From assembly GCA_959604355.1 (NCBI GenBank), contig CAUHAO010000003.1:210-64209 (forward strand): a stretch of DNA of 64,000 nt, written 5' to 3'. Numbering within the stretch: the stretch's first letter is position 1; the number at the start of each line of letters is the position of its first letter. Both the position numbers and the translations under genes were made by a program. Positions 9,221 through 19,416 of this stretch are shown here, piece by piece. Below the pieces are notes generated by a model. It did not search any database and had not been told where the DNA came from. It saw only the letters and a program-made list of their open reading frames with translations. The DNA comes from an uncultured Eubacteriales bacterium (GTDB taxonomy: Bacteria > Bacillota > Clostridia > Oscillospirales > UBA644).

Positions 9221-9249
9221 TTGACAAAAAACGTAAGATACTGTATAAT
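9221..9249 (+). promoter_or_regulatory. Sigma-A type promoter for first CBM9-like gene
   Basis: TTGACA (9221-9226), a 17-nt spacer, then TATAAT (9244-9249) with TG at -15/-14. Confidence 0.5.
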
Positions 9250-9299: not shown

Positions 9300-10502
9300 A
9301 TGAAAAAAACATTGCTTGCGATTTTATTGACCGCAGCGATGGTCGTCGCGTTTGCTGCCGGCGCTTTCGCTGAGGTGGAGATCCCAGAGGATGATTTACC
9401 GTATATGCCGACTATTACCTGCGATAAGATTAACTACGGTACCCCGAAGGTCGACGGTAAGGTCGATGATCTGTACGCTACGACGTTCCAATCCAGGACT
9501 TCCACTCTCGCCAACGTTTATAACTATCAGGAGGCCGCAGAGGAATCCAACGCTCAGGGTGTTACATATATTCTTTGGGACGAGGATTTCATTTACATCT
9601 GCACTGAAGTTTCCGACAGCACGATCCTTTCTCAGGGCGAAGACTGGATATGGGAAAATGTTACTAAGTCCGGAGGACCCTGGTCTAATGACTGCGTTGA
9701 AATGCATATAGCATGGTACGGAGAAGACGATGACTCAACCACCGCTCAGAAGTGGGGTGTCGATGCTTACGGTTATCTTCTCTACACCAACTACGGTGAC
9801 GTTTACTATGAAGGTTACGAAGATGCTTACGCAAAGACTTCCGTTGATAAGAAAAACGGCAAATATGTAGTTGAAGTTGCCATTCCTAATGCCGAAGGTC
9901 TCGGCGAAGGCGACCACCTCGGTTTCTGCCAGCAGCTCAACGATATCGTTGACTTCGGCGGTGATGAAGGTCAGGCCCGTTACGCATGCTATTTCGGTAT
10001 GCAGGCTCCCTGGATGTTCGTGTATGAATTGGTAGACACCACCGGAGGATCCCACGGCGGAGAAGAGCAGACAGACGCTCCTACGGAAGAACCCACACAG
10101 GCTCCTACCGATGCGCCCACACAGGCTCCTACCGATGCACCCACCCAGGCTCCCACGGAAGAACCTACACAGGCTCCTACCGAGGCACCCACCCAGACCC
10201 CCACGGAAGGACCTACACAGGCTCCCACCGATGAACCCACCCAGACCCCCACGGTAGAACCCACGCAGGCTCCCACAGGTGAAGAACCCACAGCAGATCC
10301 TTCCGGAGAACCTACCGAAGAGCCTACGCAAGAGCCTACCAATGCTCCCACAGACGCACCCACCAATCCACCTACTGCTGCACCCACACAGGAGGCTACG
10401 GAATCCCCTGCTAAAAAAGGTTGCGGATCCGCAGTCATCAGCGGTGCGGCGGTTGTAATGCTCGCCTGCGCGGCAGCTGTCGTTCTTAAGAAAAAAGACT
10501 GA
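9300..10502 (+). CDS. Secreted CBM9/DOMON-like carbohydrate-binding protein with Pro/Thr linker and Cys-containing C-terminal sorting-type tail (paralog 1)
   Basis: Strong RBS ggagga. Signal peptide ends AFAAGAFA|E. CBM9-like strings are present: KVDGKVDDLY, YILWDEDFIYICTEVSD, NDCVEMHI, YVVEVAIP, LGFCQQLNDI. A long (PTxAPTx)n linker follows. The tail is KKGCGSAVISGAAVVMLACAAAVVLKKKD. Confidence 0.85.
   Translation: MKKTLLAILLTAAMVVAFAAGAFAEVEIPEDDLPYMPTITCDKINYGTPKVDGKVDDLYATTFQSRTSTLANVYNYQEAAEESNAQGVTYILWDEDFIYICTEVSDSTILSQGEDWIWENVTKSGGPWSNDCVEMHIAWYGEDDDSTTAQKWGVDAYGYLLYTNYGDVYYEGYEDAYAKTSVDKKNGKYVVEVAIPNAEGLGEGDHLGFCQQLNDIVDFGGDEGQARYACYFGMQAPWMFVYELVDTTGGSHGGEEQTDAPTEEPTQAPTDAPTQAPTDAPTQAPTEEPTQAPTEAPTQTPTEGPTQAPTDEPTQTPTVEPTQAPTGEEPTADPSGEPTEEPTQEPTNAPTDAPTNPPTAAPTQEATESPAKKGCGSAVISGAAVVMLACAAAVVLKKKD
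10071..10405 (+). repeat. Coding Pro/Thr-rich tandem repeat (linker) of paralog 1
   Basis: Iterated 24-nt units encode PTQAPTDA / PTEEPTQA variants. Confidence 0.8.
10413..10499 (+). other. C-terminal tripartite sorting-signal-like tail (K-K-G-C-G-S / hydrophobic helix / KKKD)
   Basis: 29 codons with the Cys codon TGC at 10422-10424. The sequence is identical to the paralog 2 tail. Confidence 0.6.
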
Positions 10503-10647: not shown

Positions 10648-11913
10648 ATGAAAAGGATAACCGCGGTCATAATTTTTGCGGCGATTCTCATTTCTTTGCT
10701 CGCCGTAAGCTCTTTTGCTTCTTTTGAAGTGCCCGAAGAAGAGCTCCCGTATATGCCGACTATTCCAAACGACAAGATCAATTACGGTACACCGAAAATC
10801 GACGGCGTCGTCGATGATATATATGCCAACACTTTTCAATGCACATCATCCACTGTTGCTAACTGGGATAACGGAAACGGCGTTGTGAGTGATTCCGATG
10901 CTCAGGGCACGACCTATATACTCTGGGATGAATATTGGGTCTATTTCTGCACGGAAGTATATGACAGTACAATCCTTTCTCAGGGCGAGGACTGGATATT
11001 CAACGGCACGCATTGGGGCGGCCCGTGGATGAATGACGCAGTCCAGATATTCCTTGCATGGCACGGCGAAGACGACGACGCGACAACATATCAGAAATGG
11101 GGTATGGACGCCTACGGAATACTCCTATATACCGTCAACGACTCTTTGTATTACGAGGGCTATGAAGAGGCCTACGCCGTAGCGAAGATGGATAAAAAGA
11201 ACAGGAAATATGTTATTGAAATGGCTATTCCGAATGCGGAAGGGCTGACGGAGGGCGATTTCCTCGGTTTTTGTCAGCAGATCAACGATATTGTTGACTT
11301 TGCGGGAACCAACGAACAGGATGGCTGTGCCCGTTGTGCATGTTATTTCGGATATCAGCAGCCGTGGCTGTTCCCGTATGAGCTTGTAGACGACGGCTCA
11401 AATCCTCACGTGTACGAAACGGGCGACGCTCCTACGGAAGATCCTACACAGGCTCCTACCGATGCCCCCACACAGACCCCCACGGAAGAACCCACGCAGG
11501 CTCCCACGGAAGAACCCACACAGGCTCCCACAGATGCACCCACCCAGGCTCCCACGGAAGAACCTACACAGGCTCCTACCGATGCACCCACCCAGACCCC
11601 CACGGAAGGACCCACACAGGCTCCCACCGATGAACCCACCCAGACCCCCACGGTAGAACCCACGCAGGCTCCCACAGGTGAAGAACCCACAGCAGATCCT
11701 TCCGGAGAACCTACCGAAGAGCCTACGCAAGAGCCTACCAATGCTCCCACAGACGCACCCACCAATCCACCTACTGCTGCACCCACACAGCCTTCCACAC
11801 AGGAGGCTACTGAATCCCCTGCTAAAAAAGGTTGCGGATCCGCAGTCATCAGCGGTGCGGCGGTCGTAATGCTCGCCTGCGCGGCAGCTGTCGTTCTTAA
11901 GAAAAAAGACTGA
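10648..11913 (+). CDS. Secreted CBM9/DOMON-like protein with Pro/Thr linker and Cys-containing C-terminal tail (paralog 2)
   Basis: RBS aaggagg. The architecture matches 9300-10502. The N-terminal domain is clearly diverged by eye, but the last ~110 aa are near-identical. Confidence 0.85.
   Translation: MKRITAVIIFAAILISLLAVSSFASFEVPEEELPYMPTIPNDKINYGTPKIDGVVDDIYANTFQCTSSTVANWDNGNGVVSDSDAQGTTYILWDEYWVYFCTEVYDSTILSQGEDWIFNGTHWGGPWMNDAVQIFLAWHGEDDDATTYQKWGMDAYGILLYTVNDSLYYEGYEEAYAVAKMDKKNRKYVIEMAIPNAEGLTEGDFLGFCQQINDIVDFAGTNEQDGCARCACYFGYQQPWLFPYELVDDGSNPHVYETGDAPTEDPTQAPTDAPTQTPTEEPTQAPTEEPTQAPTDAPTQAPTEEPTQAPTDAPTQTPTEGPTQAPTDEPTQTPTVEPTQAPTGEEPTADPSGEPTEEPTQEPTNAPTDAPTNPPTAAPTQPSTQEATESPAKKGCGSAVISGAAVVMLACAAAVVLKKKD
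11425..11820 (+). repeat. Coding Pro/Thr-rich tandem repeat (linker) of paralog 2
   Basis: Same PTxAPTx unit family as 10071-10405. The 3' ~300 nt is almost identical to paralog 1. Confidence 0.8.
11824..11910 (+). other. C-terminal tripartite sorting-signal-like tail
   Basis: KKGCGSAVISGAAVVMLACAAAVVLKKKD, with the Cys codon at 11833-11835. Confidence 0.6.
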
Positions 11914-11959: not shown

Positions 11960-11994
11960 AAAGACGCCGATGGCTTGACTGTCGGCGTCTTTTG
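11960..11994 (+). terminator. Rho-independent terminator after paralog 2
   Basis: AGACGCCGA-tggcttgactg-TCGGCGTCT followed by TTTT. Confidence 0.6.
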
Positions 11995-12003
11995 TTGTAA
12001 AAT
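11975..12003 (+). promoter_or_regulatory. Possible promoter for lgt-like/CPBP pair, embedded in the terminator
   Basis: TTGACT (11975-11980), a 17-nt spacer, then TAAAAT (11998-12003). Confidence 0.4.
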
Positions 12004-12036
12004 ATACGCAGAAGGATCATGAAAAGAGGCAGCACG

Positions 12037-12813
12037 ATGTATCCCTACAAAGTTTTCTTCGGAATGACGCTGTACGAATTGTTTATCGTCGTCGGTATCA
12101 TTTGCGCGCTCATTATATTCAGGCTGTTGTCGGACCGCGAAGGCGTGCGGGCGAAGCTTTATAATTTTGTCGTTTTTGACGGCGTCGCCGGTGTCGCCGT
12201 AGGATTTTGCTGTGCAATTTTCGCGCAGGCTGTATATAATTATATAGAAAACGGCATCTTTACAATTGATAAGGGCACGGGAATGACGTTTTACGGCGGA
12301 TTTATCGGCGGCGCGGCGATGTTTTTTGCGATATACTTTGCAGTCGGCGGAGTGATATTCCGTGATGGATATCATAAAGAAAAACTGCCGCGCATCCTCG
12401 ATATGCTCGCGGCGGGCATCGTGGCGGCGCATGGGTTCGGGCGGATAGGCTGTCTTATGGCAGGATGCTGCTACGGCAGACCGACCGAGGCATGGTACGG
12501 TGTGTGGAATGAATATCTTGCATGCAGGACCGTGCCCGTTCAGCTTTTCGAGGCGCTGTTTTTGTTTGCCCTCAGCGCATTTCTTGTCCGTCGCTTCGTA
12601 AAAGGAAGAAGATGCGGTATCGCCGTCTACATGGTTCTCTACGGCGTATGGCGTTTCTTCATAGAATTTTTCCGCAGCGATGACCGCGGCGAGACTGTTC
12701 TGTCGGTCTTTTCACCATCCCAGCTTACCGCGATAATCCTTGTCGCCGTCGGCGCGGTGATACTCATATCATTCCGTATGAAGTCGCGAAAAAGAAGGTT
12801 GACTAATGATTAG
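12037..12813 (+). CDS. Prolipoprotein diacylglyceryl transferase (Lgt) family protein, divergent paralog-type
   Basis: Polytopic membrane protein with Lgt-like blocks: GMTFYGGFIGG, HGFGRIGCLMAGCCYG, VPVQLFEALF, YGVWRFFIEFFRSDDRG. ATG 12037 (RBS aaagagg) is preferred over ATG 12019 because the putative promoter ends at 12003. Confidence 0.8.
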   Translation: MYPYKVFFGMTLYELFIVVGIICALIIFRLLSDREGVRAKLYNFVVFDGVAGVAVGFCCAIFAQAVYNYIENGIFTIDKGTGMTFYGGFIGGAAMFFAIYFAVGGVIFRDGYHKEKLPRILDMLAAGIVAAHGFGRIGCLMAGCCYGRPTEAWYGVWNEYLACRTVPVQLFEALFLFALSAFLVRRFVKGRRCGIAVYMVLYGVWRFFIEFFRSDDRGETVLSVFSPSQLTAIILVAVGAVILISFRMKSRKRRLTND

Positions 12814-13606
12814 AAATAAGAAGCGTACAATATATTATATTATAATGGCTGTATTCGCACTGCTTCTCATCGTTGTTGAGAGAATCGGCGGGCCATTTGC
12901 ATCCGACGCAGGTCTCGACGCTATGATCCGAAAGGCTGTCAGCTGCGCCTGCGGAAGTGTCGTTTTTATTATCGCTGCGGCAATGTTCGGCTACCGTATT
13001 TTCGGCCGAGGAGCAGAGCCTCTCGGCAAAGCGCTGCTGTTTTCTCTGCCGTGTTTTTGCGCAGCCATAAACAATTTTCCGATAATCTCGGTGCTCAACG
13101 GCGACTGCAGGCTCGCCAAACCGTGGTATTTCGTCGCGGCGCTCGCAGCGGAGTGCCTTATGATAGGACTTTTTGAAGAGGTTACTTTCCGCGGCGTCAT
13201 ATTTCTCATGGTTCTTGAAAAACGGCGAAAAACCGTATGGGATATTTTCATTTCCGTCGTTATCACGTCCGCGGTGTTCGGAGTGATACATCTGACGAAC
13301 ATCCTCATGGGTGCGGGCGTCGGTGGAGTAATAATGCAGATAGGATATTCGTTCCTCATCGGCGGAATGTGCTCTGTCGTGCTTATAAAAACAAGAAACA
13401 TATGGCTGTGCGCCCTTATTCACGGTATTTTCGATTTCGGAGGATATTTCCTTTCGTCTGTCGGAGAAGGAACGATGTGGGATACTGCGACAGTCGTTCT
13501 GACCGTTTTTTTGTCCGTTGCCGTAGCTGTTTATGTGGTATACGCGCTCATTCATACCGATCCTGCTGCGCTCGGCAAATTGTATGCTTCCGACGAAAAC
13601 GACTGA
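12806..13606 (+). CDS. CPBP family (CAAX-type, Abi/PF02517-like) intramembrane glutamic endopeptidase
   Basis: All three CPBP motifs are present: EExxFR (LFEEVTFRG), FxxxH (FGVIH) and HxxxD (IHGIFD). It is multi-TM. The start overlaps the lgt-like stop by 8 nt, which suggests translational coupling. Confidence 0.85.
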   Translation: MIRNKKRTIYYIIMAVFALLLIVVERIGGPFASDAGLDAMIRKAVSCACGSVVFIIAAAMFGYRIFGRGAEPLGKALLFSLPCFCAAINNFPIISVLNGDCRLAKPWYFVAALAAECLMIGLFEEVTFRGVIFLMVLEKRRKTVWDIFISVVITSAVFGVIHLTNILMGAGVGGVIMQIGYSFLIGGMCSVVLIKTRNIWLCALIHGIFDFGGYFLSSVGEGTMWDTATVVLTVFLSVAVAVYVVYALIHTDPAALGKLYASDEND

Positions 13607-13654: not shown

Positions 13655-13683
13655 TTGACAAAACGGTAAAAAAATATTATAAT
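13655..13683 (+). promoter_or_regulatory. Sigma-A type promoter for paralog 3
   Basis: TTGACA (13655-13660), a 17-nt spacer, then TATAAT (13678-13683). Confidence 0.5.
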
Positions 13684-13731: not shown

Positions 13732-14727
13732 ATGAAAAAGACTTTTCTTGCACTTGTCCTTGCGGTTGCTCTGATGGCGGCTCTCGCTGTCGGTTCTCTT
13801 GCAGGGTATGTGGCAGAGATTCCCGAGGAAGATCTTCCTTATGCGCCCACCGTTCTTTTCGATAAGATCAATTACGGTTCTCCGAAGGTTGACGGTGTTC
13901 TCGATGAGATCTACGCTACATCTTTCCAGGTAAGAACTTCTTCCCTTACTAATTACGGTGAAGAATCCGCTACCGCATCCGCTGTTACCTACATTCTTTG
14001 GGACGACGCTTACTTCTATTTCTGCACTGTCGTCAACGACAGCACCATCCTTTCTCAGGGTGAAGAATGGGTAGAAGAATGGCTCGGCAAAAACGGCGGT
14101 CCTTGGGCAAATGACTGCGTCGAACTTCACATTGCATGGAACGGTGAAGACGATGACTCTACCACATCTCAGAAGTGGGGTATGGACGCGTTTGGTCATG
14201 CTCTTTACACCAACTACGGTCTGACCTATTACGAAGGCTACGAAGATGCTTTCGGCGTTGCTGTTAAAGATACCGCTGCAAACACTTATACTGTCGAGAT
14301 CGCTATCCCGAACGCTGAGGGCCTTACCGAAGGCGACGCTATAGGTTTTGAGATGCAGCTCAACGACCTCATTGACTTTGGCGGAAACGGCGGCTCTGCT
14401 CGTATAGGTTGCTTCTTCCTGTGGCAGCAGCCTTGGAACTTCGTTTATGACCTCATCGATGACGGAACCAATCCTCACGATGTGGTAGTCGTTCGTCCTA
14501 CCGATGAACCCACCGAACCTGCTACGAATCCTCCCACAAGCGAACCCACGAGCGAACCCACAGATGCTCCTACAAACGAACCCACAGACGCTCCTACCAA
14601 TGCACCCACTAATGAGCCCACACAGCCCTCCGAACCCAAATCCGGATGCGGTTCTGCGGTCATCAGCGGTGTAGCAGTAGTAATGCTCGCGTGTGCAGCA
14701 GTTGTTGTTCTTAAGAAGAAAGACTAA
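13732..14727 (+). CDS. Secreted CBM9/DOMON-like protein with short Pro/Thr linker and Cys-containing C-terminal tail (paralog 3)
   Basis: RBS aggagga and signal peptide ...AVGSLAG. The same CBM9-like strings occur: KVDGVLDEIY, YILWDDAYFYFCTVVND, NDCVELHI, YTVEIAIP. The tail is KSGCGSAVISGVAVVMLACAAVVVLKKKD. Confidence 0.85.
   Translation: MKKTFLALVLAVALMAALAVGSLAGYVAEIPEEDLPYAPTVLFDKINYGSPKVDGVLDEIYATSFQVRTSSLTNYGEESATASAVTYILWDDAYFYFCTVVNDSTILSQGEEWVEEWLGKNGGPWANDCVELHIAWNGEDDDSTTSQKWGMDAFGHALYTNYGLTYYEGYEDAFGVAVKDTAANTYTVEIAIPNAEGLTEGDAIGFEMQLNDLIDFGGNGGSARIGCFFLWQQPWNFVYDLIDDGTNPHDVVVVRPTDEPTEPATNPPTSEPTSEPTDAPTNEPTDAPTNAPTNEPTQPSEPKSGCGSAVISGVAVVMLACAAVVVLKKKD
14496..14640 (+). repeat. 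Coding Pro/Thr-rich repeat (linker) of paralog 3
   Basis: PTDEPTEPATNPPTSEPTSEPTDAPTNEPTDAPTNAPTNEPTQ. Confidence 0.7.
14638..14724 (+). other. C-terminal tripartite sorting-signal-like tail
   Basis: K-S-G-C-G-S + 19-aa hydrophobic helix + KKKD, with the Cys codon at 14647-14649. Confidence 0.6.
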
Positions 14728-16938: not shown

Positions 16939-19416
16939 ATGAAAAAACTTCTTACTGCTTCCGTCGCCTTTGTACTTGTCGCAGCAATGGTGTTTGCTTT
17001 CGCGGCTTGCACGAAGACTCCGACGGTCGTAACGTTTACCGGAGACTATACCTTTGAAGATTCTGTCTCCACTCTGTCCGCTAACTGGAACAGACATACT
17101 TATCAGACTGAAGATGAATCCTATCCTTTGGACTTCATTATGAGTGGTCTTTACACCTTTGTGTTCAACGACGAACTCCACCCTGTTGAAGGTAAAGACG
17201 CTTATAAGGGCTACAAAATCATTCCCGACATGGCTGAAAGTGATCCTGTTGATGTCACCGAAGCTATCAAGGCTGCACATCCCGAATTCGGTATTCCCGA
17301 ATCCGCAAAGAAGGGCTATGCTTACACCATCGATCTTAACAAAGAATGCGTATGGCAGGACGGCACTCCCATCAATGCTGAAACCTACGTTTACTCCATG
17401 CAGCAGATGCTCGACCCCGCTCTGAAGAACTACAGAGCTACCGACTATTTTGAAGGCGACTTCTGCATCGCTAATGCAAAGAACTACTACTATCAGGGCC
17501 AGACTGCTTACAATGTTATCGGCGTAACTACTTCCGATTATCTTAAATCCGGCAAACTTGAAGACCTCTATATTGATTGCTGGAACTTCTGGAATGCTGA
17601 AGGTTATGTTGATGCCCAAGGCAATACCTGCCCCCAGTGGGTTTCCGTTCTTGACGAAACCGTTTACGGCGAAAACGTTAACGACGCTTTCTCCGGTAAA
17701 GATCTCTATGATACTTATTTCGCTCCCGGCGCACCTTACGAAAGCTTTGCTGCCGAGTATGTAGCATATAAGGTATCTTATCCCGCTGACTATGCTTGGA
17801 GCAACGTCGGTATCTACGCTTCCGGCGACTATCAGATTACACTTGTTCTCGGTAAGTCTCTCGCAGGCTTCAACCTCCTTTACAACCTCTCCGGTAACTG
17901 GCTGGTTTACAAGGATCTTTATGAAGCATGCAAAAAGCAGATCGGTGATACCGATGCTTGGGCTAGCACCTACTGCACCAGCGTTGAGACCACAATGTCC
18001 TACGGTCCTTACAAGCTGGTTGAGTATCAGGCAGACAAATCCATGCGTTTCGAAAGAAATGAGAATTGGTTTGGTTATAAAGACGGCAAACATGTCTATG
18101 TAGACCCCGAAGACGGCAAGACCTATCCTATGTATCAGACCACTGCCATCAACTGCCAGGTTGTTGCAGATGCTGCTACAAGAAAGCTCATGTTCCTCAA
18201 AGGTCAGCTCATGTCTTACGGACTCCAGGCTGAAGACTTTGCTACATACAGAGATTCCGAATACTGCTATGTAACTCCCGATGAAACCATCTATTTCTTC
18301 ATCTTCAACGGTTACATGGATGCTATCAAGAATCGTGAAGCAAATGAAGCTTTTGACCAGACAAAATACGATCTCGAGACCCTGACCCTCAAGACATTCA
18401 GAAAAGCAGTTGCTGTTACCTATGATAAGGAACTCCTCTGCGCTACGATTTCTCCCTCCAGATCCGGCGGCTACGGTCTTATCGGCTCCAGCTACATTTA
18501 CGATCCCGAGACCGGCGCTAAATACCGTGATACCAAACAGGCTAAACAGGCTCTCTGTGACTTCTACAGCGTTGATGTAAGCAAGTTCGACAGCCTTGAT
18601 GAAGCGGTTGCTTCCATCACCGGTTACGATCCGGAAGCTGCTAAGGCTCTCTATACTCAGGCATTCAACGAAGCTTTGGAACTCGGTTATATAACCGATG
18701 CCGATAACGACGGCAAGTCCGACCAGACCATCAGAATCGAATATGCATCCTCCGCTACAAGCGACTTCATCCAGAAGACTCTCGCTTACCTCAACGAGAA
18801 GATGCTCGAAGTTCTTGTCGGCACACCTTTCGAAGGCAAAGTCGAATTCTATGAATCCGCTCCTCTCGGAAACAACTGGTCCAACAACATCCGTAACGGT
18901 TTGTCCGATACCGTTCTCGGCGGTTGGGGCGGCTCTGCTCTTAACCCCTTCAGCGTCACCGACTGCTACACCAATCCCAACAGACAGTATGACGCTAAGT
19001 GGTTCGATGCTTCCAAGGTTTCCTTCACTCTCAACGTTGATGTTGCAGGTGTCGAAGCGGCTGCTCCTGTTAGAGAAGATGTCACCATGACTCTCGAACA
19101 GTGGTCTCTTGCCCTTAACGGCGAAACTGTTACTGTCGGCGATAAGAGCTATTGCTTCGGCGACGGCATCGCTGATGTCGAGACCAGACTTGATATCCTT
19201 GCAAAGATTGAAACAACCGTTCTCCAGACATACGACTACATCCCGATGCTCCAGAACGCCGGTATGTCTCTGCTTTCTCAGCAGGTATACTATATCGTCG
19301 AAGAGTACAATCCGATTATGGGTCGCGGCGGCATTCAGTACATGAAGTACAACTACAATGACGCTGATTGGGCAGCATATGTTGCAACCCAGCCCGACGG
19401 TCAGCTCAGCTACTAA
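16939..19416 (+). CDS. ABC transporter substrate-binding lipoprotein, peptide/nickel (family 5) type, unusually large (825 aa)
   Basis: Lipobox VFAFAAC at the N-terminus. Its position ahead of OppB/C/D/F-like genes and its general family-5 SBP character support the call; the family was judged by eye only. Confidence 0.8.
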   Translation: MKKLLTASVAFVLVAAMVFAFAACTKTPTVVTFTGDYTFEDSVSTLSANWNRHTYQTEDESYPLDFIMSGLYTFVFNDELHPVEGKDAYKGYKIIPDMAESDPVDVTEAIKAAHPEFGIPESAKKGYAYTIDLNKECVWQDGTPINAETYVYSMQQMLDPALKNYRATDYFEGDFCIANAKNYYYQGQTAYNVIGVTTSDYLKSGKLEDLYIDCWNFWNAEGYVDAQGNTCPQWVSVLDETVYGENVNDAFSGKDLYDTYFAPGAPYESFAAEYVAYKVSYPADYAWSNVGIYASGDYQITLVLGKSLAGFNLLYNLSGNWLVYKDLYEACKKQIGDTDAWASTYCTSVETTMSYGPYKLVEYQADKSMRFERNENWFGYKDGKHVYVDPEDGKTYPMYQTTAINCQVVADAATRKLMFLKGQLMSYGLQAEDFATYRDSEYCYVTPDETIYFFIFNGYMDAIKNREANEAFDQTKYDLETLTLKTFRKAVAVTYDKELLCATISPSRSGGYGLIGSSYIYDPETGAKYRDTKQAKQALCDFYSVDVSKFDSLDEAVASITGYDPEAAKALYTQAFNEALELGYITDADNDGKSDQTIRIEYASSATSDFIQKTLAYLNEKMLEVLVGTPFEGKVEFYESAPLGNNWSNNIRNGLSDTVLGGWGGSALNPFSVTDCYTNPNRQYDAKWFDASKVSFTLNVDVAGVEAAAPVREDVTMTLEQWSLALNGETVTVGDKSYCFGDGIADVETRLDILAKIETTVLQTYDYIPMLQNAGMSLLSQQVYYIVEEYNPIMGRGGIQYMKYNYNDADWAAYVATQPDGQLSY

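Follow-up and report, generated by a model that had tools for sequence, protein, structure and literature searches.

A CPBP-linked Lgt paralogue as a candidate enzyme for the lipidation of C-terminal cysteine sorting signals in gut Clostridia

The stretch of DNA analysed here (64,000 nucleotides, hereafter the window; positions 210 to 64,209, forward strand, of contig CAUHAO010000003.1 in assembly GCA_959604355.1) comes from an uncultured Eubacteriales bacterium and encodes, at 12037..12813 (+), a 258-aa protein of the Lgt family in whose signature block cysteines take the place of N146 and E151 of E. coli Lgt. The question raised by this locus is what such an Lgt paralogue acts on. The initial annotation, made from the sequence alone, proposed a distinct clade that might act on a C-terminal rather than an N-terminal cysteine. 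This is likely, and is supported by genomic context and phylogenetic profiling: the gene lies next to a CPBP protease gene, the pair is flanked by three secreted proteins with Gly-Cys tails, and the tails occur in the same genomes as the protease. The gene is thus a candidate for the enzyme that lipidates C-terminal Cys sorting signals.

The start codon of the Lgt paralogue was placed at ATG 12037, which has an AAGAGG Shine-Dalgarno sequence 8 nt 5' of it and agrees with the MYPY N-terminus of the homologues; an alternative ATG lies upstream at 12019. Pfam LGT (PF01790) matched the protein with 107.7 bits against a gathering cut-off of 24.9. The AlphaFold2 model (predicted local distance difference test, pLDDT, 87.9; predicted template modelling score, pTM, 0.83) had E. 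coli Lgt (5AZB; E 9.6e-7, TM 0.63) as its sole significant PDB match at E <= 0.001, and it has the seven transmembrane helices of that structure. By fold and residues the protein belongs to the Lgt family and, within it, to the Cys-type subfamily, of which it represents a CPBP-linked subclade. Its scores were 70 bits on the NCBIfam equivalog TIGR00544 (cut-off 118.9) and 122.6 bits on NF000778 (cut-off 334), and since it stays below every NCBIfam Lgt equivalog cut-off it is not classed as "the" Lgt. The genome holds two LGT genes, the paralogue (107.1 bits) and a canonical one on contig 10 (250.9 bits) with the N/E-type signature GRWGNFMNAEAFG, and it also encodes LspA. The view that the paralogue is not the housekeeping copy is thereby supported.

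The partner gene, at 12806..13606 (+), encodes a CPBP/Rce1-like intramembrane protease (Pfam PF02517, 57.6 bits). Between its ATG and the stop of the lgt-like gene there is an overlap of 8 nt (ATGATTAG), a sign that the two genes may be translationally coupled. A scan with one genome per species gave at least 555 loci with relatives of the Lgt paralogue, and adjacency and neighbours were counted in the best 80 of these, all of which come from uncultured gut or rumen Clostridia. A CPBP orthologue was found directly 3' of the lgt-like gene in 69 of the 80 loci, mostly overlapping it by a few bases, and the 11 genomes without adjacency (10 "Borkfalkia-type" genomes and one locus at a contig end, L042) all carry an orthologue elsewhere (188-251 bits). 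The expectation that the clade neighbours a CPBP gene, or at least occurs together with one, thus holds nearly always. Clustering of the neighbours showed the protease to be the sole other gene family conserved at the locus; no third conserved neighbour was found over the 80 loci, be it an Lnt-like, LspA-like or rhomboid gene. In the literature searched, we met with no account that pairs a CPBP protease with an Lgt paralogue.

With regard to the protease itself, E124, E125 and R129 (EExxxR), H162 (FxxxH) and H206 are invariant in 46 orthologues, and D210 (HxxxD) is nearly so. The myxosortase models MrtC, Mrt_core, MrtJ and MrtS gave weak, sub-threshold matches, the best being 23.1 bits on MrtC (cut-off 195) and 22.4 bits on Mrt_core (cut-off 100); on these scores the protein is placed as a CPBP protease outside every described Mrt family. 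A Foldseek search of PDB with its model (pLDDT 94.6) returned no significant match, the archaeal Rce1 structure included, and the family assignment is therefore based on Pfam and on the conserved catalytic motifs.

The three proteins that flank the lgt-CPBP pair are its putative clients. Client 1 (9300..10502, +) consists of a signal peptide for signal peptidase I (SPase I), a CBM9-like domain, a Pro/Thr linker and the tail GCGSAVISGAAVVMLACAAAVVLKKKD at 10419-10499. Client 2 (10648..11913, +) has the same architecture and a tail identical to that of client 1 at 11830-11910, and client 3 (13732..14727, +), again of the same architecture, carries the tail GCGSAVISGVAVVMLACAAVVVLKKKD at 14644-14724. 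All three end in GCGSAVISG(A/V)AVVMLACAA(A/V)VVLKKKD. A tail profile of 34 positions, built on 26 tails (profile A2), scored clients 1, 2 and 3 at 48.5, 48.4 and 48.1 bits, respectively, and the best non-client at 7.8 bits. The whole genome contains seven tail matches of at least 30 bits, two of which are one sequence found at contig ends, and the match that follows scores 7.8 bits. When 32 tails were aligned, the Cys was invariant, Gly preceded it in 31 of the 32, and 23-28 residues followed it; position +1 after the Cys is K or G, +2 is S (26/32), +3 is A, V or T, and +4 is V, L or I. Several secreted proteins thus end in a tripartite C-terminal signal with an invariant Cys. When the tails were searched against NCBIfam at E <= 10, nothing beyond sub-threshold noise came up (LPXTG, NPXTG, GVDTG), and the signal is therefore not a catalogued sorting domain. 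Read from the membrane towards the Cys, the tail gives [VL]-[AV]-S-x-C, which is like a reversed lipobox with one spacer residue, a resemblance only.

The association between tail, protease and Lgt subclade was examined in 399 evenly sampled Clostridia genomes, with thresholds of at least 190 bits for a CPBP orthologue and E <= 1e-4 for a tail. A CPBP orthologue was present in five of the 399 genomes (the window's own genome G000, G195, G380, G272 and G445; next best match 84 bits). Tails were found in four (G000, G195, G380 and G445), all of them carriers of the orthologue, and in 0 of the 394 others (Fisher p = 5e-9, or 4e-7 when the window's own genome is left out). Moreover, the pair is adjacent in 39 genomes, and 38 of these hold between 1 and 41 tails, the exception being a 0.9-Mb partial bin. 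The tightest association is that of the tail with the protease, and the Lgt subclade is tied to the protease by synteny and co-occurrence.

The residues quoted in the initial annotation (GRIGCLMAGCCYG, MTFYGG, and the equivalents of R143, R239 and E243) were all found in place when the paralogue was aligned to E. coli Lgt. The signature block G135-R136-I-G138-C139-L-M-A-G143-C144-C145-Y-G147 (12439..12477, +; GRIGCLMAGCCYG) corresponds to G142-R143-L-G145-N146-F-I-N-G150-E151-L152-W-G154 of the E. coli enzyme (GRLGNFINGELWG), so that C139, C144 and C145 represent the replacements N146C, E151C and L152C. The block M-T-F-Y86-G-G (12283..12300, +) corresponds to M-S-F-H103-G-G. Kept in the paralogue are Y26, G99, G104, G142, R143, G145, G154, Y235, R239, E243 and R246; Y13, Y202, R206, E210 and R213 are its equivalents of Y26, Y235, R239, E243 and R246. 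The residues reported as essential in E. coli Lgt are Y26, H103, R143, N146, G154 and R239 (PMC13251419), and H103 and N146 aside, these are all retained. From the same study it is known that E151A works in E. coli Lgt, and that more distant Lgts have C, or C/D, in place of N146 and E151 (PMC13251419).

An alignment of 31 clade members that are 44-58% identical shows C139, C144 and C145 in every one of them, and their presence is therefore not a matter of chance drift; about 50 positions are invariant across these 31 orthologues. The subclade differs from other Cys-type Lgts in fixed residues (L12, N43, V61, F75, T81, L140, W153 and W205) and in a short insertion at about residues 100-110 that is specific to it. 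H132, Q64 and P227 are likewise invariant in the CPBP-linked clade, yet they are not exclusive to it. As to the His-to-Tyr change in the FHGG block, Tyr is indeed present in the paralogue, but it is not special. The canonical Lgt of the same genome also has it (GGLAIYGG), the position varies between H, Y, W, L and I among other clostridial Lgts of the N/E-type, and Y is reported to replace H103 in Firmicutes Lgts (mBio 2026, PMC13251419); we therefore rejected H103Y as a distinguishing mark.

How much the Cys-rich signature itself can tell was judged from its distribution. A HMMER search of 1.84 billion cluster representatives (50% identity) at E <= 0.001 gave 7404 relatives of the Lgt paralogue, and among the best 150 of them GRxGCxxxGCCxG was found in 135, the remainder being mostly fragments. 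Three genomes of the Clostridia sample (G185, G230 and G435) have one LGT-family gene each, reading GRIGCF[LM]AGCCYG, together with LspA, and G185 is a single contig that is 99% complete. The sole Lgt of G185 passes both NF000778 (411.9 bits, cut-off 334) and TIGR00544 (137.9 bits, cut-off 118.9), that of G230 passes TIGR00544, and that of G435 falls narrowly below it (116.1 bits). These sole-copy Cys-type Lgts are presumably housekeeping enzymes. Because such genes pass curated models, proteins of this kind are already treated as lipoprotein transferases, and because they share N146C, this replacement does not exclude Lgt activity in the paralogue.

On the family tree described below, GRxGCxxxGCCxG is ancestral to the whole Cys-type half, and the paralogue has inherited its Cys signature from the subfamily; alone, the signature is no sign of new chemistry. 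The idea that the Cys-rich motif signals altered acceptor chemistry is consequently not supported: the motif is ordinary in the subfamily, and N146C/E151C is already in print (PMC13251419). The initial annotation had named single-copy clostridial Lgts with the same motif as the observation that would speak against it; such Lgts do exist in some Clostridia, as the three genomes show, and in part they do speak against it. The tempting inference that Cys for Asn and Glu marks a C-terminal function is thereby corrected, and in genome annotation and inhibitor design a protein with GRxGCxxxGCCxG should be regarded as a likely active Lgt. As a separate observation, genome G212 (C1:3151654-3152390) carries an N/E-type lgt cut by an in-frame TAA (fragments of 155.9 and 107.6 bits) and an intact Cys-type copy, and it looks like a genome caught swapping one Lgt type for the other.

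A maximum-likelihood tree of 126 Lgt-family proteins separates the N/E-type from the Cys-type, with the sole-copy Lgts near the base of the latter. One clade of 58 rows (approximate likelihood ratio test of the Shimodaira-Hasegawa type, SH-aLRT, 98) holds all 38 sampled CPBP-adjacent copies together with the window's gene, which bears out the proposal of a distinct clade; nested in it is a single subclade (SH-aLRT 99) of the 10 Borkfalkia-type copies, which have no CPBP gene next to them. No stops or frameshifts were seen in the lgt-like gene in any of the 80 loci. Forty-five of 50 carrier genomes additionally hold an N/E-type Lgt (170-270 bits), and in four of the remaining five the other LGT-family matches are merely Cys-type or degenerate. 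G025 and G030 have Cys-type copies only, and G007 has the CPBP-linked gene alone, with no other LGT-family match. Three LGT-family genes occur side by side in G012, G003, G035 and others (L132-L134), namely an N/E-type gene, a GRIGCFFAGCCYG Cys-type gene unlinked to CPBP, and the CPBP-linked one. The score on profile A1 was also tried as a proxy for membership in the CPBP-linked clade and was rejected, since G067, G138, G414, G423, G324 and G272 have copies of 200-233 bits that lie outside the clade; these six genomes have no adjacent CPBP gene and no tail matches, and G272 is the only one among them with a CPBP orthologue, which is unlinked. It is therefore the tree, and not the score, that delimits the clade.

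The interpretation that we favour, with moderate confidence, is that a dedicated Lgt paralogue diacylglycerylates the tail Cys and that the CPBP protease then removes the helix. After Sec export and removal of its SPase I signal peptide, a client would stay tethered by its C-terminal helix, with the Lys-rich end in the cytoplasm. The invariant Cys of G-C-[G/K]-S-[A/V]-[V/L] would then lie at the outer face of the membrane, at the depth of a lipobox Cys although with the opposite chain direction. The Lgt paralogue, which retains the phosphate-binding arginines and other essential residues, would move diacylglycerol from phosphatidylglycerol onto the thiol of the tail Cys. The CPBP protease would then cut right behind the Cys that bears the lipid, in the manner of Rce1 on prenylated CAAX proteins, and so remove the helix. 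The predicted end product is a protein with a C-terminal lipid anchor on the cell surface, its Pro/Thr linker spanning the wall.

A number of findings weigh against this proposal. As sole-copy Lgts have the Cys signature too, the latter is unusable as support for C-terminal lipidation, and many genomes in which there is neither a CPBP orthologue nor a tail hold Lgts of both types, N/E and Cys. The partners can also be found apart: G272 has a CPBP orthologue and no tail match, and tails are missing from 4 of the 11 genomes without an adjacent CPBP gene. In G195, G272 and G445 the CPBP orthologue is not linked to any Lgt gene and the Cys-type paralogues lie outside the subclade, which means that the clade is not strictly required. 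A fusion of Lgt and CPBP was found in none of ten long homologues (394-649 aa), which contain the LGT domain only or unrelated additions (GHMP kinase, phage gp30.3); two Lgt-like open reading frames (ORFs) of about 500 aa by first-start calling (L010:10001-11557 and L019:6401-7879) likewise showed the LGT domain alone. G018 (CP091718.1, a metagenome-assembled genome of an Oscillospiraceae member with a complete 1.78-Mb chromosome) has LspA but no Lgt of the N/E-type. Its LGT-family genes (loci L010/L105/L126) are limited to the Cys-type gene linked to CPBP and a copy on a long branch in which R143 is lost (VAHWGCLFVGCCHG); the CPBP-linked gene is its only credible Lgt. The enzyme therefore probably keeps ordinary lipobox activity and may be unspecialised.

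It could accordingly be argued that the paralogue is an unspecialised second Lgt working on N-terminal lipoboxes, that any Lgt may lipidate the tail Cys, and that the operon link to CPBP reflects co-regulation of two envelope maturation steps. This would account for G018, for G185, G230 and G435, where Cys-type genes are the only LGT-family genes detected, and for G195 and G445, which have CPBP and tails without the CPBP-linked subclade; moreover, MrtX processed a MYXO-CTERM tail in E. coli, where no Lgt other than that of the host is present (PMC11980579). We nevertheless consider this explanation unlikely. Against it stands the overlapping-frame adjacency kept in 69 of 80 species, and the subclade has invariant residues of its own and the insertion at about residues 100-110, which are not common to other Cys-type Lgts. 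In addition, the retention of a separate N/E-type Lgt in 45 of 50 carriers, and of another Cys-type copy in most of the others, argues for division of labour. Quite improbable, in our judgement, is that the tails are cleaved without being lipidated, the CPBP protease releasing or trimming helix-anchored proteins and the Lgt paralogue having another role, e.g. on substrates of the protease elsewhere or with a different lipid donor or acceptor. CPBP proteases do act on non-lipidated substrates too, including bacteriocin- or immunity-related targets, and a change of donor or chemistry might in principle follow from the substitutions at N146 and E151. A plain cleavage site is, however, hard to reconcile with a tail in which the Cys is the one invariant residue and Gly precedes it in 31 of 32 cases, the lipid-phosphate-binding R143 and R239 as well as Y26, Y235 and E243 are all kept, and both CAAX proteins and myxosortase substrates offer precedent for lipidation first and cleavage second.

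The paralogue could also be a duplicate that is decaying or of low activity and lacks a specific role, comparable to a minor Lgt homologue reported as the second one of Mycobacterium smegmatis (Y26H, N146C). Its scores below the curated Lgt cut-offs would fit this, and one N146C homologue has been termed "presumed low activity" (PMC13251419). Against decay stand the roughly 50 positions that are invariant over 31 orthologues at 44-58% identity, the retention of all essential residues but N146, the intact reading frame in all 80 loci, the CPBP synteny in 69 of these and the relatives in at least 555 species genomes. The duplicate explanation is already disfavoured, and we regard it as very improbable.

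Taking dedicated lipidation of the tail Cys as the preferred interpretation, the system can be compared to several known ones. The paralogue shares with E. coli Lgt (5AZB/5AZC; PF01790; TIGR00544) the seven-helix fold and the eleven kept residues given above, but it differs in the three Cys replacements and in a very short head domain; it is furthermore a second genome copy below the equivalog cut-offs, and CPBP-coupled rather than stand-alone. To the other members of the Cys-type subfamily (NF000778/PRK00052.3-4 and relatives) it is alike in GRxGCxxxGCCxG, in its length (the subfamily has about 250-270 aa) and in its place in the same half of the tree. Those proteins, however, can be the sole Lgt and pass the cut-offs (411.9 bits for G185 against 334, compared to 122.6 bits for the paralogue), whereas the paralogue has clade-specific residues and a CPBP partner.

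In its presumed mode of action the system is like the myxosortase-type sorting systems MYXO-CTERM/MrtX, JDVT-CTERM/MrtJ, Synerg-CTERM/MrtS and CGP-CTERM (Haft 2023 preprint; Sah et al., mBio 2025), which have in common with the present system a short motif with an invariant Cys, one helix and a basic cluster, as well as a co-occurring CPBP-family protease and a proposed lipidate-then-cleave order. The present system differs in that it belongs to Firmicutes, which are monoderm, and involves no type II secretion step; in its G-C-[G/K]-S motif, its Lys rather than Arg tails and a protease below all Mrt cut-offs; and in having an Lgt-family gene physically coupled to the protease, with a tail that no NCBIfam model matches. 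CAAX processing (a prenyltransferase followed by Rce1 or MmRce1; eukaryotic and archaeal) is similar in that a lipid is placed on a near-C-terminal Cys and an Rce1-family glutamic protease cuts off the rest. Here, in contrast, diacylglycerol from a phospholipid is the lipid that is predicted, its addition would take place outside the cytoplasm, and the part removed would be a 23-28-residue tail including a membrane helix instead of three residues.

These comparisons bear on a gap in the myxosortase model as published (mBio 2025): the enzyme that lipidates MYXO-CTERM proteins is there explicitly left unidentified, with Lgt named only as the leading candidate (PMC11980579; Haft preprint). The locus described here presents an Lgt-family gene that in dozens of species is coupled to a sorting protease and that accompanies the tail signal, which reduces the question of lipidation to a reconstitution with two genes and one tail. 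Tentatively, and short of calling it probable, we propose that the CPBP-linked Cys-type subclade is the first dedicated C-terminal Cys diacylglyceryl transferase and that with its Rce1-type partner it forms a mirror-image lipoprotein pathway, by which gut Clostridia would anchor surface proteins, as many as dozens in a genome; the Lgt family may, by extension, supply the missing lipidation step of MYXO-CTERM-type systems generally. Uncultured gut Clostridia would, if the mechanism is true, hold many large surface enzymes and binding proteins by a C-terminal lipid anchor, and these make up a class that current predictors do not recognise.

Some further features of the locus should be mentioned. 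An inverted repeat, GACGCCGA...TCGGCGTC, followed by TTTTGTTG, was read at 11963..12003 (+) after client 2. It overlaps a promoter-like TTGACT-17-TAAAAT site just 5' of the lgt-like gene (11975-12003, a 10/12 match), and the hairpin is unlisted in the terminator scan because its loop is 11 nt. Perfect promoter-like TTGACA-17-TATAAT sites lie directly 5' of clients 1 and 3, at 9221-9249 and 13655-13683, respectively. Clients 1 and 2 have near-identical Pro/Thr linkers and identical tails but different CBM9-like domains (10200-10502 compared to 11600-11913), which suggests recent gene conversion at their 3' ends.

On the same contig, outside the window (C3:77295-80137), three adjacent ORFs end in SPWTWAALGV(T/S)(S/A)ATVGIAALALKKK(K/E). 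These ends consist of a Cys-less motif, a helix and a Lys cluster and score 5-7 bits on the Cys-tail profile; by their make-up they would be a second type of C-terminal anchor within this genome. Finally, the protein encoded at 16939-19416 is a family-5-like solute-binding protein whose signal peptide ends in AFAAC, likely a classical lipobox, which would place an ordinary N-terminal lipoprotein a few kb from the clients with a C-terminal Cys.

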